Assembly: GCF_001677475.2 (NCBI RefSeq)
Contig: NZ_CP015229.1
Source: Escherichia coli
GTDB taxonomy: Bacteria > Pseudomonadota > Gammaproteobacteria > Enterobacterales > Enterobacteriaceae
Strand: one strand, 5' to 3'
Length of the DNA: 64,000 nucleotides
The position numbers and the translations under genes are program-made. Each line of letters starts with the position of its first letter. The first letter of the stretch is position 1. Shown piece by piece: positions 16 through 31,805 of the stretch. The notes beneath the pieces were generated by a model that saw only the letters and a program-made list of their open reading frames with translations, did no database searches and had not been told where the DNA came from.

Positions 16-2088
16 TTATTGTGTGTAAATGTCTCCCTTTAAAAAGTCTGGCCAGTTTTTTTCAAAGTAAATACCGTTAATACACGGTTGCATACGTAAA
101 GACTTTACTTCGGTAATAAAAGAACCTTGCGAATATTGAATTGTTAATTTGTGATTTTTATCTTCAGCGAGTTCAGAGCGAAAACGCCATTCTTCTTTTA
201 CGCCGCGACGAGTTTGTGGTAGGCATTTGCCTTGTGGATCAATAACCATCCGCGCCCCACGACTGCCGCCACCAGCATCAATATAATGCGTTAATTGTGT
301 TAATACCGCGGCAGAAGTCAGCGCCATATGCCGCCACATAAACAGCTCGGAAACTTCACCCACATGTTTGATTGCCAATCCATGCCGTTGGACAAATTCG
401 TTCAATAGCAGGGCATCGCGAGTGGCGCGTCGGACTTTATCGGCATGGCAAATAAATCCCGCATAGTCAGACATTCGTGCCTGAATTTTTTCTCTCACAA
501 CCGACAACGGCATCCCGGTCCCGTTATCGTGCGCCTGAGTAATGATCTCTCTTATAGAAGCCAGTGCCGGAGCTGCCAGCTGTGCTATATCTCCATCAAT
601 ATTCCGCTTTTGCGTGCAACCAATAAAACGTGCCAGACGCACGGCAAAAACCTGCCCGGCATTCAATGCCGCACCACCAGGGCGAGTGACGCCGTGTGTG
701 CCAGCAACTTCCCCCACTGCAAAACAACCGGGCAGAGATGTTTGTCCCCAGATATCCACTTCAATGCCGCCATTCATATGCTGATTATTCATGGCAAACT
801 GCAATGGCTGCGTGGTGAGATCGTAACCGTGCATCTTATACAGCGAGATAGACAGCGGATTCATTCGTTGCAGTCGTTCGATGGGCGATGGCGCCAGGGC
901 GTCGTTATTTTCCAGATACGCGCGAACGTCGTCGTCCAGTCGTTCTAATGAGAATGGCAGGTCACCCGGCACAGGTTCAGGATTGCGATTGAAATCCATA
1001 AATACCTGACGCCCTGATTGCTGCTCTTGCGCCACCGCCATATCTAACAAGCTGGAGCCAAAATCCATTACCCGCGTGGCGTGGAACGGCCACTGATAGC
1101 CTTTACGGAAGATGTTTGAAGCCAGCTCCTGGGTGGTGCGATAGTAATCTGCGAGGAAGTTATACTCGTTGCCCTCGGCATCCACGGAATAGATATATGG
1201 GATCACTTGTACATAGGTGCCGGACAAATTCCACGGAAACGTGCTGCGCGGCGTGCCTATACCAAACTGGCTTTCGGTCAGATTAGTTAGTGTCAGGCCT
1301 TCCTCCAGCGCCAGCCCCAGCGAGCCAAAACATTTGTGTGGGTACACACTGTCGCGATAAAGCTCGCCCGGCCCGCCTGTTGCCAGTACCACATTGGGCG
1401 CAGTCACAATTGCCAGCCCCCACGGGTTATGGGCGCGGGAACCGGTTGCGAGGATAGCCCCGGCCACACGATCTTCGCCGTTTTCACCGCGTTGATGCAG
1501 CAGTTTAATCACCGTTGCACTGGTCAACAGTGGGATGGCGAGGCGCTGCACTTCTTCGAGCAATACTTTCACCATCAGACGAGAAGTGCGCGGCCCACAG
1601 GAGGTTGCGCGTCCGGCTTCGTCATGGTCGGTCTGATAACGGAGAATTGCACCATAGCGATCTTCCGGTAATTCCAGACCGAGATATTGCAGCCCGCCAA
1701 GGGTATGTAGGGAACCGACCGCTTCGACATACGCCGTGTCGTGATCCATCGCACCGCCGCTCGCCAGTGCTTCAGCAAGTTTTGCGAAGTTATCGCCGTT
1801 GCCCGCCGTTGCGGCGGTAAACAGCGTCTGTTTATCGGAACCGGAGCAGGCCGATGTTCCCATGTATAACCCGGCGGTGGCGATTAGCACATTTTGCTGG
1901 CGACGTTTCAGTTCAACCGCCGCACGTAATCCTGCCGCGCCGCTACCAACGACCAGAGCATCTGTTTGCCAGAGCGGGTAATCAACACCGTCCACCGTGA
2001 CAATTGACGTTGGCTCTGCTGACACAAAACCCTTCGGGAAAGTGACGTGCGTCAGCGCATCGAGGATGGCGTCATCAGTCTGGCTCAT
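16..2088 (-). CDS. FAD-dependent oxidoreductase, fumarate reductase/succinate dehydrogenase flavoprotein-like (KstD/TcuA-type), 690 aa
   Basis: Full-length ORF; Rossmann motif VVGSGAAG about 45 aa from the N-terminus followed by a GTSACSGS motif; start overlaps the stop of the upstream CoA-transferase gene by 4 bp. Confidence 0.7.
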   Translation of the reverse strand: MSQTDDAILDALTHVTFPKGFVSAEPTSIVTVDGVDYPLWQTDALVVGSGAAGLRAAVELKRRQQNVLIATAGLYMGTSACSGSDKQTLFTAATAGNGDNFAKLAEALASGGAMDHDTAYVEAVGSLHTLGGLQYLGLELPEDRYGAILRYQTDHDEAGRATSCGPRTSRLMVKVLLEEVQRLAIPLLTSATVIKLLHQRGENGEDRVAGAILATGSRAHNPWGLAIVTAPNVVLATGGPGELYRDSVYPHKCFGSLGLALEEGLTLTNLTESQFGIGTPRSTFPWNLSGTYVQVIPYIYSVDAEGNEYNFLADYYRTTQELASNIFRKGYQWPFHATRVMDFGSSLLDMAVAQEQQSGRQVFMDFNRNPEPVPGDLPFSLERLDDDVRAYLENNDALAPSPIERLQRMNPLSISLYKMHGYDLTTQPLQFAMNNQHMNGGIEVDIWGQTSLPGCFAVGEVAGTHGVTRPGGAALNAGQVFAVRLARFIGCTQKRNIDGDIAQLAAPALASIREIITQAHDNGTGMPLSVVREKIQARMSDYAGFICHADKVRRATRDALLLNEFVQRHGLAIKHVGEVSELFMWRHMALTSAAVLTQLTHYIDAGGGSRGARMVIDPQGKCLPQTRRGVKEEWRFRSELAEDKNHKLTIQYSQGSFITEVKSLRMQPCINGIYFEKNWPDFLKGDIYTQ

Positions 2089-3626
2089 GCGTCCTCCATT
2101 GGCGTAAACAGGCTACTTTCCATCAGGCGCGGCTGGTTGATAATTGGACGGAAAGCCATGAACGGCAGAATGTCGCGGTCAATCTCCACGCCCGGCGCGA
2201 TTTCAATTAATTCAACGCCTTCTGCCGTTAACTGAAACACCGCGCGTTCAGTGATATACAACACTTCCTGACCGCTGTGCTGTGCGTAGGCGGCGCTAAA
2301 AGTGATTTTTTCCACCTGAGTAACCAGTTTAGGGATTTGACCTGACTGGGCGATATGCAAGCCATCTGGCGTTACATCAATCTTGCTGCCTTTGGCGTCG
2401 AACGTGCCGCAGAACACCACCTTACGGGCGTTTTGCGCAATTTCGAGAAATCCGCCGGGGCCAATCAGATTGCCATTGAGATGGGAGACGTTGACGTTAC
2501 CGTACTGATCCATCTCTCCCATGCCGAGGAAGGTGATATCGATCCCTCCGCCACTGTAGAACTCAAATTGATCGAGTGATGGAATAATGGCATCGGCGTT
2601 GCGGGCGCAGCCGAAAAACGCATCATCCAGCATCATACCGTTATGCACGCCTTGCTCGACGCTCAGCCATAAACTTTGGTAAGGCACGCCTTCGCGCAGC
2701 GCTACTCCTGGAATGCCGCCGGGAATACCAAAGCCAAAGTTGGTTGAAGCGCCAGCTACCAGTTCGCGTGCTGCCCGACGGGCAATCAGGCGACGTACCG
2801 GATGACTAACCAGTTCAATAGCGTCGTTAGAACTCAGACGGCGATGTTGGCCGCTGATGGTCAGGTCGTAACCGCCAAGATAGGTTTGTGGCTGTTCGCG
2901 GTGTTCAACGATGCCATCAACCAGAATGCCCGGTAATTTGACTCGGCGTGGTTCAATCGCGCCAGCTTCCAGCACATCGCGTACCTGTACAAACACTTTG
3001 CCGCCGCTGTTGTGTGCTGCCAGCGCCATGGAATAGCTATCCATATCAATCGCTTCTTCTTCAAGGCTGACGTTGCCCCGAGGATCGGCATAAGTGCCAC
3101 GCAAAATCGCGTAATCGACTTTGAAAGGGCGATAACGAAGTTTGGTTTCACCGTCGATTTCAATCAGTTCTACCAGGTCGTCGGTAGTGCATTCATTCGA
3201 CTTACCGCCGCCATTGCGTGGATCAACAAACGATCCCAGCCCAACGTGGGTAAAAAGCCCCGGACGTCCGGCGCCGATCTCCCGTAGCAGTGCCTGAATC
3301 ACGCCACCAGGAAAACAATAGGCTTCAATCGCGTTATTTTTTACCAGCGCCTGCATTTTGGGTGACCAGGTAAAGTGTCCGGCAATAATGCGTTTGAGCA
3401 TTTCAGCATGAGCGAAGCGGTTCGTGCCTTTGCAGTCGCGATCGCCAATGCCCAGCGAGTGGATTAATGTCAGATCGCGCGGGTGTCCGGTTTGCAGGAA
3501 GCGCGCTTCAATGGCTGCCAGAATATGGTCGGCTTCCACCATGCCGCCGCCGTTACCGCTAATGGCAATGGTTGCGCCATCCTGAATTTGCGCCGCCAGT
3601 GCCTCGGCGGTTGTTATCTTACGCAT
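2085..3626 (-). CDS. Family I CoA-transferase (acetyl-CoA hydrolase/transferase-like, fused subunits), 513 aa
   Basis: ORF with N-terminal AISGNGGG and a central glycine-rich region typical of fused CoA-transferases; 9-bp spacing to the upstream gene. Confidence 0.7.
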   Translation of the reverse strand: MRKITTAEALAAQIQDGATIAISGNGGGMVEADHILAAIEARFLQTGHPRDLTLIHSLGIGDRDCKGTNRFAHAEMLKRIIAGHFTWSPKMQALVKNNAIEAYCFPGGVIQALLREIGAGRPGLFTHVGLGSFVDPRNGGGKSNECTTDDLVELIEIDGETKLRYRPFKVDYAILRGTYADPRGNVSLEEEAIDMDSYSMALAAHNSGGKVFVQVRDVLEAGAIEPRRVKLPGILVDGIVEHREQPQTYLGGYDLTISGQHRRLSSNDAIELVSHPVRRLIARRAARELVAGASTNFGFGIPGGIPGVALREGVPYQSLWLSVEQGVHNGMMLDDAFFGCARNADAIIPSLDQFEFYSGGGIDITFLGMGEMDQYGNVNVSHLNGNLIGPGGFLEIAQNARKVVFCGTFDAKGSKIDVTPDGLHIAQSGQIPKLVTQVEKITFSAAYAQHSGQEVLYITERAVFQLTAEGVELIEIAPGVEIDRDILPFMAFRPIINQPRLMESSLFTPMEDA

Positions 3627-3635
3627 ACAATTTCC

Positions 3636-4412
3636 TTAGTGATTATGGAAGCTCACGCTACTTTTTTCGGCAAATGCCTGCGTCGCCTGCTGGCAATCCT
3701 GAGTGGCGGACATTAATCCAGCCAGTAACTGGTGTGGGTATTCAGCGTGTTTATTTTCCAGTGCCAGAATCAGCTGCTTAATATGCGCCAGTGCCACCGG
3801 ACCACATTTTTCCAGCTGCGCTAACTGGTTCGCCATCCAGCTTTCCACCTGTTCTTTTTCTACTACTTCATCAATTAAATTCGCCGCCTGGGCTTCATGC
3901 GCCGTCAGACGTTTACCTAGCATCAGCATCTGGCGACCGACCACTGGGCCGACCTGATTAATCACGCGTTCAATGCCCATCCAGCCAGGCACCATGCCGA
4001 GCATGACTTCCGGGTTAGAAAATTTCGCGCTGGGGCGAGCGATTCGAATATCGCAGCACAAGGCAAGTTCAATACCGCCGCCGATGGTATGACCGTTGAG
4101 ATTCGCAACCGTTAATTGCGGTAAATTGCGCAGGCGATTAAAAACGTCATTGCCGCGTTTAATCCATTTTCTGCCCATATCTAATGGCGAATAGGCCGAC
4201 CACGATTTAATATCACCGCCCGCACAAAAGAATTTATCGCCGATTGCCGTTAATTCGACTAATCGTAATGTGGTGTCGTTTTCAATTTCATTTAAATAAT
4301 GGTCGAGAGATTCAATCATCTCTTCGTTAATAGCATGACATTTCTCTTCACGGTTCAACGTCAGGCGGCAGGAAGCCGCCGCTCTGCTGAACAGAACGGG
4401 TTGGTCACTCAT
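3636..4412 (-). CDS. Enoyl-CoA hydratase/isomerase (crotonase fold), 258 aa
   Basis: ORF with crotonase-like motifs (FCAGGDI, HTIGGGIELAL). Confidence 0.75.
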   Translation of the reverse strand: MSDQPVLFSRAAASCRLTLNREEKCHAINEEMIESLDHYLNEIENDTTLRLVELTAIGDKFFCAGGDIKSWSAYSPLDMGRKWIKRGNDVFNRLRNLPQLTVANLNGHTIGGGIELALCCDIRIARPSAKFSNPEVMLGMVPGWMGIERVINQVGPVVGRQMLMLGKRLTAHEAQAANLIDEVVEKEQVESWMANQLAQLEKCGPVALAHIKQLILALENKHAEYPHQLLAGLMSATQDCQQATQAFAEKSSVSFHNH

Positions 4413-4421
4413 GATTATTCC

Positions 4422-5264
4422 TTAGCAATAATTCGCGATGCGATCGACGCTAATATCCAGCGTGTTGTTAATATCTTTCTGCCACCAGTACGGTGAGAAT
4501 ATTTCCAGTTCAATAGCGCCATTAAATCCGGCGTTTTCAACCAGTCGACGAATTGACGGAATATTTATCACGCCATCTCCCGGCATTCCCCGGTCATTGA
4601 CCAGATCGGTGGTCGGCACTAACCAGTCGGAAACATGAAACGCGAGAATACGTTTTCCGGCGCGCAGGAGCTGGCTGGCCAGATCCGGATCCCACCAGAC
4701 ATGGTAAACATCCACAGCCACGCCGAGGCCAAATTCGCCATCGGGATCGAGTTCATCACACCAGTCCAGCGCCTGGCGTAACGTGCACAGGCAAGAGCGA
4801 TCGGCGGCGGTCATTGGGTGCAGTGGCTCCAGCGCAATCGGCACGCCAACGTCTTTCGAATGTGGCAGTAACTGGCGTATCCCTTGTTTCACCTGTTCCC
4901 GTGCTTCATACAGATCTTTTGTGCCCTGCGGTAACCCGCCAACCACCTGCATATAACAGGCGGCGTTCAGCACCGCTGCGTCGTCCAGCGCCCGGCGGTT
5001 ATCATCAATTGCCAGTTTGCGTTCCGCCAGCGTCGGCGCGGTGTAGTAGGTGCTACGGCATAAACCGGAAACGCGCATGTTATTGACGGCAAGCTGGCGG
5101 GCGATCTGCTGAAGATCTTCACCCTGCAACTCTCTGCGCCAGGGGGCGATCGCACCGATACCGCGTGCGGCACAGGCATCAATAATGGCGGGTAGCGGCG
5201 TTTTATAGCCCAGTGTTGCGGTATTGATACTGAATAAATCCGGGCGTTGTAACAGATCTCTCAT
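4422..5264 (-). CDS. Sugar phosphate isomerase/epimerase (xylose isomerase-like TIM barrel), 280 aa
   Basis: ORF whose translation resembles the AP-endonuclease-2/xylose-isomerase-like TIM-barrel family. Confidence 0.65.
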   Translation of the reverse strand: MRDLLQRPDLFSINTATLGYKTPLPAIIDACAARGIGAIAPWRRELQGEDLQQIARQLAVNNMRVSGLCRSTYYTAPTLAERKLAIDDNRRALDDAAVLNAACYMQVVGGLPQGTKDLYEAREQVKQGIRQLLPHSKDVGVPIALEPLHPMTAADRSCLCTLRQALDWCDELDPDGEFGLGVAVDVYHVWWDPDLASQLLRAGKRILAFHVSDWLVPTTDLVNDRGMPGDGVINIPSIRRLVENAGFNGAIELEIFSPYWWQKDINNTLDISVDRIANYC

Positions 5265-5273
5265 GATTCAGCC

Positions 5274-6065
5274 TCAGAAGCGCGGCATACTTAAGCCGCC
5301 GTCGATGGCGACCGCCTGACCACAGGTGTAAATCAGTTTACCTTCCGCCATCGCGCGGACGGTGGAGGCAATATCAGCCGGATAACCCCAACGTCCCCAC
5401 GGCACCAGACCTTTGGCAATCAGTTCGTCGTAATAAGCCGTTGCTGGAATAGTCATATCGGTTTTGATGAGACCAGGGCGCACTTCATAGACGCCAATTT
5501 GTTCGTTGCAAAGGCGAGCAGCAAACAGACGAGCAGCGGCAGAAACGGCGGTTTTGGCAATTGTGTATTCGCCGCGATTCATCGCCAGCATGATGGCGTT
5601 GATGGAACTGACAAAAATAATTGAGCGGTGCGGGAATTCTGTTTCTGGTTTTGGCTGTGCGAGCAGACGTTTACTGAATGCCTGTGCAAGGAAGAACGGT
5701 GCGCGGGTGTTAATGGCAATATTTTGGTCGAAGCTGTCTGGTTCCAGGTCGAGAAGGTCACCGCGTTTTTTCACTGAAATGCCTGCGTTGTTGAGCAGGC
5801 AGTCCAGACGTCCCCACTGGTTTTGCGCTGCGTCGAGCATCTCTTCATGCAGGGAGAGATCGCCAACATCGGCAGGGAAGCAAATCACTTCCACGCCTTC
5901 CGCCAGACATTCTTGTTGTGTGACATGTAATTTTTCAACGCTATCGGCATCCGGACGATCATTAATCAGCAGATTAAATCCGCCACGCGCAAGCTCCAGC
6001 GCACAGCCCTTTCCAATACCACGAGCGGCTCCGGTAATCACGGCAACAGGACGAGTGGATTTCAT
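5274..6065 (-). CDS. Short-chain dehydrogenase/reductase (SDR), 263 aa
   Basis: N-terminal TGAARGIG cofactor motif and YxxxK catalytic motif (YTIAK); first gene of the five-gene operon. Confidence 0.8.
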   Translation of the reverse strand: MKSTRPVAVITGAARGIGKGCALELARGGFNLLINDRPDADSVEKLHVTQQECLAEGVEVICFPADVGDLSLHEEMLDAAQNQWGRLDCLLNNAGISVKKRGDLLDLEPDSFDQNIAINTRAPFFLAQAFSKRLLAQPKPETEFPHRSIIFVSSINAIMLAMNRGEYTIAKTAVSAAARLFAARLCNEQIGVYEVRPGLIKTDMTIPATAYYDELIAKGLVPWGRWGYPADIASTVRAMAEGKLIYTCGQAVAIDGGLSMPRF

Positions 6066-6133
6066 ACAATAGCTCTCTTTTTTTGAATTTTGTTTCCTTA
6101 GTGATGATTAGCTTGCGACTGGAGGATAAAAAG

Positions 6134-6155
6134 ATCAACCATCTAGTTGGTTGAT
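6134..6155. promoter_or_regulatory. Perfect 8-bp inverted repeat ATCAACCA-tctagt-TGGTTGAT in the divergent SDR/TetR promoter region; candidate TetR operator
   Basis: Palindrome read directly from the sequence; position between divergently transcribed regulator and operon. Confidence 0.4.
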
Positions 6156-6277
6156 ATGCGATGACGATCACAGGACATTTGATAACCTGATGAAAGTACA
6201 AGTTTTTGCCCTTTTTTCTGAAGCTGAAATCAAATCAGGTTATGATAGTCACCACGAAGAGGTCGTGGGGAAGCGTT

Positions 6278-6925
6278 ATGTATATTGATACCAGCAACGT
6301 ACAGAGCCTGAAGGAAAAGCTGCTGTTATGCGCGGTTAATGAATTTGCCGAATATGGTTATGAAGGGGCCAGGGTCGATAATATTGTTAAGTCTGCGGGG
6401 TGTAGTAAACAGACGGTTTATCACCACTTTGGTAATAAAGAAAATTTATTTATTGAAGTACTGGAATATACCTGGAACGATATTCGAAAAAAAGAAAAGG
6501 CCCTTGATTTCTCAGATCTTCCGCCACAAAAAGCCATTGAGAAAATTATTGATTTTACATGGGATTATTATATTGCTAATCCCTGGTTTTTAAAAATTGT
6601 GCATAGTGAAAATCAAAGTAAAGGTGTGCATTATGCAAAATCACAGCGTCTCTTAGAAATTAACCATGCGCACTTGCAGTTAATGGAATCCTTATTGGAG
6701 GAAGGGAAGAAACACAATATTTTTAAGCCAGATATCGACCCATTGCAGGTGAATATTAATATTGCTGCGCTTGGGGGATATTATTTGATCAACCAGCATA
6801 CGCTTGGCCTGGTTTATCACATCAGTATGGTTTCACCCCAGGCACTGGAAGCCAGACGTAAGGTCATCAAAGAGACGCTCCTTAGCTGGCTTTTGGTTGA
6901 CCCCTCATCTACCGCGCACGAATAA
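6278..6925 (+). CDS. TetR/AcrR-family transcriptional regulator (intact counterpart of the K-12 ytfA fragment, by recollection)
   Basis: N-terminal HTH region ([27 protein letters not shown]); ATG at 6278 preceded by a GGGGAAG Shine-Dalgarno-like sequence; the track ORF begins further upstream at a TTG. Confidence 0.75.
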
Positions 6926-13450: not shown

Positions 13451-15403
13451 TTACTTACTCAAATCCACCTGATAAATCGCAAACCCGATATCATCGGTCG
13501 CGACTTTATTCATCGGATATTGCCCTTTCTCTTTAATAAACGCTGCGGCTTTATCTGATGGAGAGGTTTCGAAACGGATATCCAGTTTCTTATCGCCAGC
13601 AATCGGTGCTAAACGCCAGTTGTTATCTGCCGCCGGGTGAATTTCCCCCGCACGTTTCGACTCATCAGCAATCCACGCTGCCAGCACCGAGCGGTTCTCA
13701 TCCGGTGAAGCAAAAGCGATATGGCTGTCGCCCGTACCAGCAAATTTGCCGCCGTAAGCGCGATAGTTATTGGTGGCAACGAGGAACATGGCGTTCGGAT
13801 CAATGGGTTTACCGTTAAAGGTCAGGTTCTTAATCCGCTCTGCATTGGCATTAACCACCTGACATTCACCGTCATAACGGGCGGGTTGGGTAACATCAAT
13901 CTGATAATTCACACCATCAATAACATCAAAGTTATAAGTGCGGAAACCATCCCAGTTGATGAGTGACTGTGGTTTCGTGCTGTTAGGATCAATCTGGTTA
14001 AACTGTCCGGCGGAGCACTCCAGCCACTCTTTCACCTCTTTACCGCTGGCTTTCACCACAATCAGCGTATTGGGGTAGAGATAAAGATCGGCGGCATTAC
14101 GGAAGGTCAACTGGCCTTTTTCCACCTCCACATAGCTTGCCGGGTCATTTTTGCGACCACCAACTTTAAACGGTGCGGCAGCTGAAAGCACCGGCAGTTT
14201 TGCCAGATCCGGATCGCCCTGAATGTAATGTTCGACATACGCTTTTTGCGCGTTGTTCACGACTTGCACGGTCGGATCGTCCTGCACCAGCGCCAGATAG
14301 CTATACATATTGTCGGCAGATTTACCGATTGGCTTGCTGACAAACTGGCGTGTGGCATCGTGATCGGCTTTGAGTGTTTCTACCAGCTTGCTATCTTCCG
14401 CCGCGAGGGATTTTTTATTAGCGATGTCGTAAATCGGCCGTGCTTCCGCTTTCGCCTGCATCACCTGCCATTTACCGCTGTCATTACTGAGTTACAAGTC
14501 GACCACACCAAGATGATCGCCCCACATGCCCGGCATTACCGCCGGAACACCATTCAGCGTGCCTTTCGCGATATCAGCCCCTTCGATATCAGCAAAATCT
14601 TTACCTGGGAAAACGGCGTGAGCATGGCCAAACATAATGGCGTTAACGCCCGGAATTTCACTGAGGTAATAAACTGAGTTTTCCGCCATCACTTTATACG
14701 GATCGGCAGACAGCCCGGAATGCGCCAGAACGACAACGAGATCGGCACCTTTCTCACGCATTTCAGGCACGTATTTGCGCACAGTTTCTGTTATATCGTT
14801 AACGGTGACTTTGCCGGACAAATTGGCTTTATCCCACCCCATAATCTGCGGCGGCACCACGCCAATATAGCCAATCTTTAACGTCTGTTTTTTTCCGTCT
14901 TTATCGACCACTTCGGTGTCTTTAATTAAATACGGTGTAAACATGGGCTGTTTGGTTTTTGCGTCGATGACGTTGGCATTTACATAAGGGAATTTCGCTC
15001 CCGCCAGCGCATTTTTCAGGTAATCCAGACCGTAGTTAAACTCGTGGTTGCCAAGCGTGCCGACGGTATAGTCCAGCGTATTTAATGCCTTATAGACCGG
15101 GTGAATATCGCCTGCTTTTAAACCTTTCGCCGACATGTAATCTGCCAGCGGACTCCCCTGAATCAAATCGCCGTTATCGACCAGTACGCTGTTTTTCACT
15201 TCATTGCGGGCATCGTTAATCAGGCTTGCGGTACGTACCAGTCCGAATTTTTCCGTAGCGGTGTCTTTGTAATAATCGAAATCCATCATGTTGCTATGCA
15301 GATCAGTGGTTTCCATGATACGCAGATCGACCGTCGCTGCATTTACACTGGCGGCAATCAGCGTGGCCAGGAGCGTTGCGCTAAACTTAATCATCAGGGA
15401 CAT
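13451..15403 (-). pseudogene. cpdB: cpdB (2',3'-cyclic-nucleotide 2'-phosphodiesterase / 3'-nucleotidase) interrupted by an in-frame TAA
   Basis: Two same-frame ORFs (14492..15403 and 13451..14464) separated only by a stop codon at 14492..14494 (minus strand); together they span the full-length protein. Confidence 0.85.
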
Positions 15404-15583
15404 CCTTTTATCATCGGGAATACGAAAGAAAAGGGAGAATAAACGTCTTACTTATAGAACAGTGAAGAATGCCACAATTTTACGCTTTGAAAATGATGAC
15501 ACTATCACAGTTGGCGCATTCATTAACGATAGGGTATAAGTAAAACAATAAGTTAACACCGCTCACAGAGACGAGGTGGAGAA

Positions 15584-16535: not shown

Positions 16536-17447
16536 ATGTTACCCAGGATCAGACACAATAATTTTATTGGTGCGGTGGAGTTATTTGTAAAGTCTTCGTA
16601 TACAAAAACACATTCAAACAATTTTTTTAACAATATCCAGCATGCATTTAAGAAAAAAGATTGGATTTCAAATTATGATAGCCTGTTAACTTTGAGGGAG
16701 TTCTTTCGTTGCGCAACTCAGATTGATAAAAATAGTTATCAGGTACTTTCATCAAAAAATGAAACTGTTAACGCCATGGATAAGTTTCTTATCAGTTTCA
16801 GCCTTAAAGATAACGGTGCCGAATATATAATGACATTGCGAGGCAGTGGATTTGAATACGAAGAAATTCCCATAACAATAAATGAGTATAACTCATTCAT
16901 GGATTTCAAAAACCGCGAGTTTCCGTTAGAACAAAACAGAAGATTGTATGCCTGGGATATTCTGCAGAAAAAACAGTCTGACATACCGGAAAGGATTAAA
17001 GGTTATATTCGCCAGGCGTTTGGTGACGTGTCTTTAGGTTATGCTGTATTGGATGATATAGTAAGTAAATTAAAACGGGGTAAATTTGACCTCCAAATAC
17101 CAGGAGGTGGAATTAAAGAATGCGATGGATGGTATATTTACGAAAAAATAATTGATGATAATTTTGCCATAGTCATAGAATCTTTGGGCTTTGCGCTTAA
17201 AATCTATGGAGGGGATGAACGTTTTCGTAATGGTTCCTCTGTTGTTTTGGAGGATGAAGATTACTCTCTTATTTATAATTTTCTGGTTAATGCAGGTTGC
17301 CAACAAGTCGAATTAGCCGAACAAGTGGATGCGATAGTAAGTGCGAATCTGGCCGCAGATAGTGATATTACCGAAGAAAAGATTTGCGAGAAATATAAAT
17401 CGACCATTGAGGCGTTTAAAAAAAAGCAACTAGCGTTACCAGTATGA
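16536..17447 (+). CDS. ytfI: Uncharacterized protein YtfI (AT-rich orphan gene)
   Basis: 303-aa ORF with strongly reduced GC (roughly one third by eye) compared with its neighbours; position matches K-12 ytfI. Confidence 0.8.
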   Translation: MLPRIRHNNFIGAVELFVKSSYTKTHSNNFFNNIQHAFKKKDWISNYDSLLTLREFFRCATQIDKNSYQVLSSKNETVNAMDKFLISFSLKDNGAEYIMTLRGSGFEYEEIPITINEYNSFMDFKNREFPLEQNRRLYAWDILQKKQSDIPERIKGYIRQAFGDVSLGYAVLDDIVSKLKRGKFDLQIPGGGIKECDGWYIYEKIIDDNFAIVIESLGFALKIYGGDERFRNGSSVVLEDEDYSLIYNFLVNAGCQQVELAEQVDAIVSANLAADSDITEEKICEKYKSTIEAFKKKQLALPV

Positions 17448-20027: not shown

Positions 20028-20204
20028 ATCTTATCCGACCTTTCAGGCCAGATCCTCGGAAGGGGAAGTTGATTAATTTGTGTGAAATACACATTGAAAG
20101 CCGATTCGAAGAAAGTGAACCGGCATTTTCAGTGGCTAGTATAGCGTAAGGTACTGTAAAGCCGCCAGAGTGTTAAAATTCAGACTGCTGATAAATGAAA
20201 AACT

Positions 20205-28266: not shown

Positions 28267-28677
28267 ATGTGGAAACGCTTACTTGTAGTCTCTGCAGTCT
28301 CGGCAGCCATGTCGTCTATGGCGTTGGCCGCTCCTTTAACCGTAGGATTTTCGCAGGTCGGATCGGAATCCGGCTGGCGCGCAGCAGAAACCAATGTGGC
28401 GAAAAGTGAGGCCGAAAAACGCGGAATTACGTTGAAAATCGCCGATGGTCAGCAAAAGCAGGAAAACCAGATTAAAGCGGTACGTTCCTTCGTTGCACAA
28501 GGGGTGGATGCGATCTTTATCGCTCCGGTGGTTGCGACGGGTTGGGAACCGGTATTAAAAGAGGCGAAAGATGCCGAAATCCCGGTCTTTTTGCTCGATC
28601 GTTCCATCGATGTGAAAGACAAATCTCTCTATATGACCACTGTTACTGCTGACAACATCCTCGAAGGTAAGTTATGA
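28267..28677 (+). pseudogene. ytfQ: ytfQ 5' fragment (galactofuranose-binding periplasmic protein), truncated by an IS insertion
   Basis: Signal peptide and N-terminal 135 residues up to ...ILEGKL, then a stop created at the IS junction. Confidence 0.85.
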
Positions 28678-28765
28678 GACGACAATAACTCAGTCCGCCT
28701 GGCGCCGATTATTCTGGCCGGTTTTGTAACCTGAGTGTCATTTACATGATCCAACAGGAAATGGC

Positions 28766-30265
28766 GTGACGCTCAATACTTCTCAGGTCAGTTACTATAT
28801 GACTCAGCGTAAGAAAGGTATAACTCAGCATATCTCGGCCATGAAGGCTGGTATCTCAGTCCGTTCTGGTCGTCGGATCGAAAAAGGAGAGTGGGCAAAA
28901 AACAGTGTTCGGCACTGGCGCACACGCAAAGATCCTCTGGAAGCTGTGTGGGACAGCATGCTTGTTCCTCTGTTGAAAGAGAGGCCGGCTCTGACACCAA
29001 CAACTCTACTGGAGATGCTACAGGATAAATATCCCGGCCAGTACCCCAACAGCCTTCGAAGAACAATGCAACGGCGGGTTCGCGAATGGAAACTACAGTA
29101 TGGTACAGAGCAGGAGGTCATGTTCCGCCAGCAACATCAGCCCGGCCTGCGAGGCCTGTCGGACTTTACTGAACTGAAAGGTGTAGTTGTCACCATCGCC
29201 GGTAAGTTGTTGGCGCATAAGTTGTATCACTTCCGTCTGGAATGGAGCCACTGGAGCTGGATGCGGGTTGTTCTGGGTGGTGAGAGCTTCTCTGCTCTGG
29301 CTGAAGGCCTGCAGGAAGCCCTCGGACAACTGGGCGGAGTGCCGGTAGAACATAAAACGGACAGCCTGAGGGCAGCATGGAAACAACAGGGCGAAGATGG
29401 ACGCCGCGAGCTGACTGAGCGTTATGCTACTCTCTGTCAGCACTACGGAATGCAGGGCGTACACAATAATGCCGGTCGGGGCCACGAAAATGGCTCGGTT
29501 GAAAGTGCCCACGGACATCTGAAAAGGCGTATCTGTCAGGCGCTGATACTGCGGGGCAGTAACGACTTCAGCACCATAGAAGAATATCAGGCCTTCATCA
29601 CTCAGCAGGTTATGCGGCACAACCGTAACAATCAGGATCTGGTCAAGGAAGAACGTCTTCATCTGAAACCGCTGCCGCTTCGTCGCAGTGCTGACTATGA
29701 TGAGCTGACTGTGAGGGTTAGTCGCAGCAGTACCATCAATGTGAAGCACGTCGTCTACAGCGTACCTTCCCGGCTTGTAGGTCAACTGTTACGGGTCAGG
29801 TTATGGGACGATCGTCTGAGCTGTTACGTTGGCAGCAGCGAGGTCATGAGCTGCCCTCGCGTCAGACCAGAAAAAGGGAAGACGCGGGCCCGTCGTATCG
29901 ACTTCCGACATGTGATCGACAGTCTGGCAAAAAAGCCCGGTGCGTTCTGCCATGCAACGCTGAGAAATGACATCCTGCCGGACGATGAATGGCGGAGGCT
30001 GTGGCGTCGCTTATGTAATCATCTGGAGCCCGATATGGCAGGAAGGCTGATGGTACATGCCCTGAAACTGGCTGCAGGATACGACGATATCTCAGTCGTG
30101 GCAAAAGGTATGGAGCAGATGCTGAATACCCCGGGAAACGTGGATCTGCACCGGCTGATGCGCTTCCTGGGTATAAAAGAAAAGGCGTTGCCGGTAGTCA
30201 ATGTGATACAGCATAACCTGAGCAGTTATGAGCAACTACTGCGTGGCAAGGGAGGTTCGCAGTGA
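28766..30265 (+). CDS. istA: IS21-family transposase IstA
   Basis: 499-aa ORF (GTG start) with an N-terminal HTH-like region; followed by overlapping istB. Confidence 0.8.
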   Translation: MTLNTSQVSYYMTQRKKGITQHISAMKAGISVRSGRRIEKGEWAKNSVRHWRTRKDPLEAVWDSMLVPLLKERPALTPTTLLEMLQDKYPGQYPNSLRRTMQRRVREWKLQYGTEQEVMFRQQHQPGLRGLSDFTELKGVVVTIAGKLLAHKLYHFRLEWSHWSWMRVVLGGESFSALAEGLQEALGQLGGVPVEHKTDSLRAAWKQQGEDGRRELTERYATLCQHYGMQGVHNNAGRGHENGSVESAHGHLKRRICQALILRGSNDFSTIEEYQAFITQQVMRHNRNNQDLVKEERLHLKPLPLRRSADYDELTVRVSRSSTINVKHVVYSVPSRLVGQLLRVRLWDDRLSCYVGSSEVMSCPRVRPEKGKTRARRIDFRHVIDSLAKKPGAFCHATLRNDILPDDEWRRLWRRLCNHLEPDMAGRLMVHALKLAAGYDDISVVAKGMEQMLNTPGNVDLHRLMRFLGIKEKALPVVNVIQHNLSSYEQLLRGKGGSQ

Positions 30266-31017
30266 GCAATATCCATCACCTTGAACATAGCCTGCGTAAA
30301 CTACGCCTGACACGAGTTGGAGCTGAATGGCACGCTCTGGAAAAACGAGCGCTGGCAGAAGGCTGGACACCATCGCGCTATCTTCTGACGCTATGCAATG
30401 AAGAACTCCTGTGGCGCGAGAGTGAAAAACTGCGTCGTTATAAAAAGGAGGCCCGGTTGCCAGTTGCCAAAACGCTGAGCGAATACGACTTCAGTCAGGT
30501 GCCGGAACTGAATGGAGCTCAGTTCCGGCAACTCTGTGAAACGACAGACTGGGTTGATGCAGGAGAAAACGTTCTGCTGTTCGGAGCCAGCGGGTTGGGG
30601 AAAAGCCATCTGGCGGCAGCGATCGTGGATGGCGTAGTAGGTCAGGGCTACCGGGCCCGGTTCTACAGCGCAGGAGAGCTGTTGCAGGAACTACGTAAAG
30701 CCAGAGCTCAGTTGAAACTGAATGAGCTGCTACTGAAACTGGATCGCTACCGGGTGATAGTGGTGGATGATCTTGGCTATGTCAAACGCGATAGTGCCGA
30801 AACGGGTGTGCTGTTCGAGTTAATAGCGCATCGCTATGAACGTGGGAGCCTGGTGATAACCAGTAACCATCCGTTCAGCATGTGGGGCAGCATCTTCGTG
30901 GATGAGACTATGGCGGTGGCTGCGGCAGACAGGCTGATCCATCACGGATATATGTTCGAACTGAAAGGGGAAAGCTACAGGAAAAAGACAGCGAAGGCAG
31001 TAACAAGCGCGACTTGA
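30262..31017 (+). CDS. istB: IS21-family helper ATPase IstB
   Basis: 251-aa ORF with Walker A GASGLGKSHLA; start overlaps the istA stop. Confidence 0.85.
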   Translation: MSNIHHLEHSLRKLRLTRVGAEWHALEKRALAEGWTPSRYLLTLCNEELLWRESEKLRRYKKEARLPVAKTLSEYDFSQVPELNGAQFRQLCETTDWVDAGENVLLFGASGLGKSHLAAAIVDGVVGQGYRARFYSAGELLQELRKARAQLKLNELLLKLDRYRVIVVDDLGYVKRDSAETGVLFELIAHRYERGSLVITSNHPFSMWGSIFVDETMAVAAADRLIHHGYMFELKGESYRKKTAKAVTSAT

Positions 31018-31084
31018 TGTCGCCCTGAAGGGTGCGGCCAGTATAGTTGGCGCGAGTCGGCAAAACTAGTTGACGTCTAATAGT

Positions 31085-31639
31085 AAGTTGATTGGTGACT
31101 GGCTGGTAAAAGAAGTCAACGGCAAACCGTGTAACGTGGTTGAGTTGCAGGGGACGGTTGGGGCAAGCGTTGCCATTGACCGTAAAAAAGGCTTTGCCGA
31201 AGCCATTAAGAGTGCGCCAAACATCAAAATCATCCGCTCACAGTCCGGTGACTTCACCCGTAGTAAAGGCAAAGAAGTGATGGAGAGCTTTATCAAAGCG
31301 GAAAACAACGGCAAAAACATCTGCATGGTTTACGCCCATAACGACGACATGGTGATTGGCGCAATTCAGGCAATTAAAGAAGCGGGACTGAAACCGGGCA
31401 AAGATATCCTCACGGGTTCCATTGACGGCGTGCCGGATATCTACAAAGCGATGATGGATGGCGAAGCGAACGCCAGCGTTGAATTGACGCCGAACATGGC
31501 AGGCCCCGCTTTTGACGCGCTGGAGAAATACAAAAAAGACGGCACTATGCCTGAAAAGTTGACCCTGACCAAATCCACCCTTTACCTGCCTGATACTGCA
31601 AAAGAAGAGTTAGAGAAGAAGAAAAATATGGGGTATTGA
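31085..31639 (+). pseudogene. ytfQ: ytfQ 3' fragment
   Basis: Reading frame resumes at ...KLIGDWLVKEVNGKPCNVVELQG... and runs to the native stop; the track ORF begins at a TTG inside the IS end (31070). Confidence 0.85.
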
Positions 31640-31649
31640 GGGACATCAA

Positions 31650-31805
31650 TACCTGATGCCGACTTGTACGCCGCCGGATAAGGCGTTTATGCCGCATCCG
31701 GCGGTTGTGTGCGGATGCCTGATGCGACGCTGGCGCGTCTTATCATGCCTACGAGTTCGATACTCTGTGTAGGCCGGATAAGGCGTTCACGCCGCATCCG
31801 GCAGT
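31650..31805. repeat. REP/BIME cluster (at least three palindromic units)
   Basis: Repeated GCCGGATAAGGCG...GCCGCATCCGGC-type units between ytfQ and ytfR. Confidence 0.75.

Follow-up and report, generated by a model that had tools for sequence, protein, structure and literature searches.

CpdB, a periplasmic, nucleotide-degrading enzyme, is a 2′,3′-cyclic-nucleotide 2′-phosphodiesterase/3′-nucleotidase. In the 64-kb window considered here, by which we mean the whole stretch of DNA that was analysed, the place of its gene is taken by two open reading frames (ORFs) lying in the same frame of the minus strand, one of 303 aa that begins at an upstream ATG (14492..15403) and one of 337 aa that begins at a GTG (13451..14464). 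The locus raises the question of whether these are two genes or one broken gene and, if the latter, whether the break is genuine, how old it is, and what it would mean for the enzyme and for the organism.

The cpdB locus and its lesion

The gene order ytfH-cpdB-cysQ is the same as in E. coli, which puts the locus in the orthologous position, and a megablast match to the gene was obtained in 5,420 of 5,426 complete E. coli genomes, where the annotation is always cpdB. The RefSeq annotation of cpdB describes a protein of 647 aa that begins MIKF, and that start corresponds to window position 15394. With Q301 restored, the encoded protein scores 1243 bits against TIGR01390 (cut-off 883), placing it within that equivalog family, and 1207 bits against NF006938 (cut-off 486); Pfam finds Metallophos at residues 24-260 followed by 5_nucleotid_C at 357-549, the expected two-domain architecture. 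Scored separately, the two fragments reach 540 and 667 bits against TIGR01390, both below the cut-off. Relative to E. coli CpdB (TIGR01390/PRK09420), amino acid identity is 98.6% across the 647 codons, with the signal peptide and both domains alike, and at the DNA level the best of the 5,426 complete genomes differs by 2.6% from the background in which the gene lies. The difference that matters is at codon 301, which is CAA in E. coli cpdB but TAA in the window, where the product ends at residue 300; the uninterrupted frame required for a full-length exported CpdB is therefore broken at this codon. The right label is a cpdB pseudogene (nonsense, Q301*), one locus rather than two genes, with the following parts:

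13451..15394, minus strand: cpdB pseudogene, a 647-codon frame whose sole defect is one nonsense codon
14495..15394, minus strand: N-terminal fragment of 300 aa (exact sequence P0001), retaining the Metallophos core behind a 19-aa signal peptide
14492..14494, minus strand: premature TAA at codon 301, CAA (Gln) to TAA, a coding-strand C to T change
13451..14461, minus strand: C-terminal remnant of 336 codons from ATG 312 plus the normal stop (exact sequence P0016), with the linker and 5_nucleotid_C, without a signal peptide

An earlier note on this DNA had claimed that a single in-frame TAA at 14492-14494 splits cpdB, and that this is a point lesion, a CAA-to-TAA change, rather than a deletion. 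The lesion can be read directly and agrees with that description. Translation of the minus strand from 15403 to 13451 gives a single frame with one internal stop, in the context GTG GTC GAC TTG TAA CTC AGT AAT GAC, in which TAA occupies 14494-14492; on the plus strand the nonsense change is G to A at 14494. Alignment with the intact A31 and IAI1 alleles is ungapped, showing CAA to TAA at nt 901 and zero indels, alongside 45-48 synonymous differences and 4-5 other amino acid changes. The position given for the break in the note, after residue 303, is right when counted from the ATG at 15403 but not in standard numbering from 15394, in which the change is Q301*. The first start codons beyond the stop are GTG at codon 311 and ATG at codon 312, 10-11 codons downstream.

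In the intergenic region between cpdB and cysQ, Rfam reports a match to the ES239 sRNA (157 bits; 15395-15517, plus strand). It lies on the strand opposite to cpdB, immediately next to the start codon of that gene, and takes in the upstream ATG from which the frame reads MSLM.

Occurrence, derivation and age of the stop codon

The exact sequences of both cpdB fragments, P0001 and P0016, are found on 8-10 other contigs from NCBI and Logan, 8 for either fragment in the public protein collection and 10 for P0001 by the index. Two assemblies with the TAA allele, a 12.9-kb Logan assembly of SRR25145098 (L003) and 6.9 kb of GCA_033753315.1 (L004), match the window at every base, the stop codon among them. 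The lesion is reproducible across assemblies and is very unlikely to be an artefact of one of them. The reconstructed 647-aa protein carrying Q301 (P0031) is also found as such, on 24-30 contigs, where it is named E. coli CpdB. Because codon 301 is CAA in all intact relatives (L001, L002, and L005-L009), the stop is the derived state.

The nearest relative with an intact cpdB, GCA_016118575.1 (L007; hereafter the sister), differs from the window by 2 SNPs over 21,944 bp, one of them at 14494. Extending the comparison to ~36 kb gives 3 SNPs, all of which are protein-changing: the cpdB nonsense change, YtfI Y224H, and YjgA N103K. Genomes that parted very recently typically show such a pattern, purifying selection not yet having had time to act. 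The dN/dS of cpdB against E. coli alleles is 0.02-0.04, alike upstream and downstream of the stop, which indicates strong purifying selection over nearly the whole history of the gene, up to very recent times. We considered and rejected an old pseudogene, given these ratios on both sides, a frame free of further lesions, and a sister only 2 SNPs away. Judged from these comparisons, the stop is a very recent event in a single clone, and the Q301* allele is seen in that clone only. The 79-bp region around the stop had no match above 96.2% among the 5,426 complete E. coli genomes, and a 42-mer spanning the TAA had no match in a scan of GTDB species representatives. As a separate observation, ~20 of the 32 differences over 6.9 kb between the window and another close relative (L006) are clustered in a 200-bp stretch inside cpdB (14740-14945), a cluster that looks like a short recombination patch.

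Compared with the best of the 5,426 complete E. coli genomes, the window shows 96.9-97.8% identity in three segments that span its full length. We infer from this divergence that the window comes from a deep-branching E. coli lineage outside that complete-genome collection; that the lineage might be a cryptic clade, clade I, is a guess. YtfI, MgtA, and the insertion sequence (IS) proteins have exact matches labelled E. coli, which occur also on an NCBI contig of 5,498,453 bp; CpdB does not have an exact match there.

Several other features of the window were recorded. A six-gene accessory cluster at 16-6925 encodes an FAD-dependent oxidoreductase, a CoA-transferase, an enoyl-CoA hydratase, a sugar-phosphate isomerase, a 3-ketoacyl reductase, and a TetR regulator. 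Coverage of the window's first 25 kb reaches 80% or more in only 3,101 of the 5,426 E. coli genomes, and this end therefore appears to be variable. The 303-aa ORF ytfI (16536-17447, plus strand) lies between cysQ and ytfJ and has no Pfam or NCBIfam match; it is missing from A31 and IAI1, where cysQ and ytfJ overlap, and it is split into 182 and 106 aa in one relative (L009). The Y224H difference from the sister falls in this ORF. The product of yjgL (56308-58224, plus strand) is 638 aa long against 608 aa in the reference, with 86% identity, whereas its neighbours are at 97-100%. Three Rfam matches are expected in E. coli: the Mg riboswitch at 48289-48404 upstream of mgtA, the STnc450 sRNA at 20089-20146 upstream of paeA, and the REP-derived element naRNA4 at 31672-31749, directly beyond ytfQ.

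Predicted consequence for CpdB

Dissection of E. coli CpdB has defined a 19-aa signal peptide, an N domain that together with a 20-aa linker occupies residues 20-354, and a C domain at residues 355-647 (PMC7922932). The isolated CpdB_Ndom (20-354) has almost wholly lost activity on 3′-AMP and on linear and cyclic dinucleotides, but still hydrolyses 2′,3′-cNMPs and bis-4-NPP, and the isolated CpdB_Cdom is inactive, the C domain being the substrate-binding one (PMC7922932). The crystallised CpdB N domains of other Enterobacteria (PDB 3jyf and 5eqv) are from constructs that span residues 16-354. Q301* removes residues 301-647, comprising the end of the N domain (~34 residues) and the linker at 301-354 and the entire substrate-binding domain at 355-647.

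Translation would halt after residue 300, giving a product that still has its signal peptide and the region matched by Pfam Metallophos. The 3′-nucleotidase and the dinucleotide and cyclic-dinucleotide phosphodiesterase activities would go, and the truncated N fragment is probably unstable too, which would leave the cell without periplasmic CpdB. On the basis of domain boundaries and the published enzymology of truncated forms, Q301* is most likely a loss-of-function change, and probably a total one. The loss may be less than complete, as the N fragment keeps its signal peptide and Metallophos 24-260 and the slightly longer 20-354 construct is active as a 2′,3′-cNMP phosphodiesterase.

The natural break has its closest functional analogue in the engineered CpdB_Ndom and CpdB_Cdom (Lopez-Villamizar et al. 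2021, PMC7922932), where a catalytic N part is likewise separated from a substrate-binding C part, and the engineered pair predicts that 3′-nucleotidase activity and activity on dinucleotides, cyclic or not, are lost without the C domain. It differs in that the break at residue 300 lies 54 residues ahead of the engineered boundary at 354, so that the N fragment is an incomplete domain, and in that the C remnant (312-647) has extra N-domain and linker residues relative to CpdB_Cdom and no export signal. A break at residue 300 is probably destabilising.

Restart of translation at GTG 311 or ATG 312 would yield a C-terminal piece without a signal peptide, useless for a periplasmic enzyme. The ATG that results from T312M was considered as a rescue start for the C half and rejected; M312 is already present in the intact relatives L006 and L007, and ATG 312 is therefore no compensatory change. 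Since no further gene follows cpdB in the same direction and ytfH lies convergent beyond it, a polar effect of the stop on neighbouring genes is not expected.

Might the enzyme nevertheless be made, in whole or in part? A sequencing or assembly error hiding a true CAA would leave exactly a single-base difference from a near-identical genome, as is found; the TAA is not in a homopolymer, however, and the exact truncated products on the other contigs, together with the two base-identical assemblies (GCA_033753315.1 and SRR25145098), make an error so unlikely that we give it hardly any credence. Just as little attaches to continued production of full-length CpdB through readthrough or an ochre suppressor tRNA. 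The base after the stop is C, and E. coli has stronger termination contexts than TAA-C, but of its stop codons UAA terminates most efficiently, and UAA recoding is not known in Enterobacteria. A suppressor tRNA nearby was looked for and dismissed, the 64-kb window containing zero tRNA genes. Less improbable than either, but still distinctly unlikely, is a remodelled CpdB, in which the secreted 300-aa fragment serves only as a 2′,3′-cyclic-mononucleotide phosphodiesterase or the halves reassemble after reinitiation at M312. The signal peptide and Metallophos 24-260 of the fragment, the in-frame ATG beyond the stop, and the residual hydrolysis of 2′,3′-cNMPs and bis-4-NPP by isolated CpdB_Ndom (PMC7922932) would fit such an enzyme. 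Yet that active construct and the crystallised N domains reach to about residue 354, and ~34 domain residues and the linker are gone here; a C remnant lacking a signal peptide would be left in the cytoplasm, apart from the exported N fragment, and the C domain is in any case inactive alone (PMC7922932). M312 is, moreover, older than the stop, and nothing suggests selection for a restart. We therefore retain loss of CpdB function as the reading of this allele.

The ytfQ insertion and the standing of the allele

The earlier note had also pointed to an insertion in ytfQ, which encodes a galactofuranose-binding periplasmic protein, and this too is correct, the gene being interrupted by ISEc10:

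28674..31084, plus strand: ISEc10 (IS21 family) in ytfQ, 2.41 kb, with istA at 28766-30265 and istB at 30262-31017

ISEc10 encodes an IstA of 499 aa and an IstB of 251 aa, sits at about codon 137, and is flanked by the direct repeat (GT)AAGTT; ytfQ is thereby split across 28267-31639, with ytfR, ytfT, and yjfF intact downstream. Removal in silico of ISEc10 and one AAGTT copy gives the sequence of the sister, with 1 SNP in 20,957 bp, and the sister (L014, GCA_016118575.1) encodes an intact YtfQ. Both Q301* and ytfQ::ISEc10 are absent from this nearest sampled relative, and because it differs by so few SNPs and has both genes intact, both lesions are young and clone-specific. Draft contigs identical to the window stop exactly at the ISEc10 junction, as computed from record coordinates, which indicates that the two lesions travel together in one clone.

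From this pair of lesions the note had proposed relaxed selection on periplasmic scavenging and genome decay of the Shigella type, and neither proposal finds support in the window or around it. When 52 reference proteins, which together span most of the window, were used in a tblastn search, cpdB and ytfQ proved disrupted and the other 50 full-length and free of stops, and the IS count in the 64 kb is 1. In the reductive evolution of Shigella and enteroinvasive E. coli (EIEC), with its IS expansion and mass pseudogenisation, lesions are far denser, although a nonsense pseudogene lying within 17 kb of an IS-disrupted gene is a likeness. A further difference is that decay of that type has its lesions fixed in a host-restricted lineage, whereas those of the window are absent from the nearest sister, distant relatives are intact, and the matching proteins are labelled E. 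coli. As to Shigella or EIEC identity, no sequence of the window speaks for or against the presence of pINV.

A directional origin of the stop, whether as Shigella-like reduction or as relaxed or positive selection against periplasmic scavenging acting jointly with ytfQ::ISEc10, is accordingly unlikely in our estimation. It draws on the periplasmic nature of both proteins disrupted in the one clone, on the multicopy state of ISEc10 in the 5.5-Mb genome, which has identical IS proteins (at least 4 IstA accessions), and on the fact that 3 of 3 SNPs between clone and sister change a protein. Against it stand the single IS and the small number of disrupted genes, the low dN/dS of cpdB, the intact state of both genes in the sister, the E. 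coli names of the matching proteins, and a related genome that at 5.5 Mb is larger, not reduced; none of the 5,426 complete E. coli genomes, moreover, comes closer to the window than 2-3% divergence. Protein-changing SNPs are expected to be in excess when genomes have only just diverged, and "periplasmic" is a category picked after the fact, with n = 2. More improbable than a directional origin is that Q301* and ytfQ::ISEc10 are adaptive rather than accidental and give the clone a niche advantage. If they were, loss of CpdB would shift periplasmic or extracellular levels of 2′,3′-cNMPs and c-di-NMPs or, in another version, the short exported N fragment would act as a cNMP-only phosphodiesterase.

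Very probably, then, Q301* is a genuine and very recent loss-of-function allele of cpdB, neutral or mildly deleterious, in one clone of a deep-branching E. coli lineage. Selection would simply not yet have purged it, cpdB being dispensable in some settings, and we infer that it lacks selective significance; having been sampled about ten times, it is at least not strongly deleterious. It is an ordinary young, clone-specific pseudogene. The practical upshot is mostly one of annotation, namely the merging of two ORFs into a cpdB pseudogene (Q301*), and the allele is usable as a clone-specific marker.

Other split cpdB alleles are found in E. coli (L029-L032): one of 462 and 135 aa on at least 20 contigs and one of 475 and 135 aa in GCA_003303255.1. 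Further remnants are 361 and 302 aa long, and a 135-aa remnant lies on the 5.36-Mb scaffold of GCA_000155005.1. These are likewise disruptions of a non-essential gene in wild isolates, arisen independently and with break points that differ from Q301*. No relevant paper on cpdB pseudogenes, whether of E. coli or of Shigella, came up in a literature search, and according to one survey cpdB-like genes are present in 176 of 176 Shigella genomes (PMC9958556). A pro-virulent role of CpdB has been reported for Salmonella and for avian pathogenic E. coli (PMC9958556). The clone described here is predicted to be without periplasmic 3′-nucleotidase and 2′,3′-cNMP phosphodiesterase, and this natural cpdB null and its near-isogenic intact sister GCA_016118575.1 could form a convenient comparison, in which the sister differs at ytfQ too. 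The independent split alleles indicate that loss of the gene is tolerated and recurs in the species; occasional loss of cpdB is a normal feature of E. coli.
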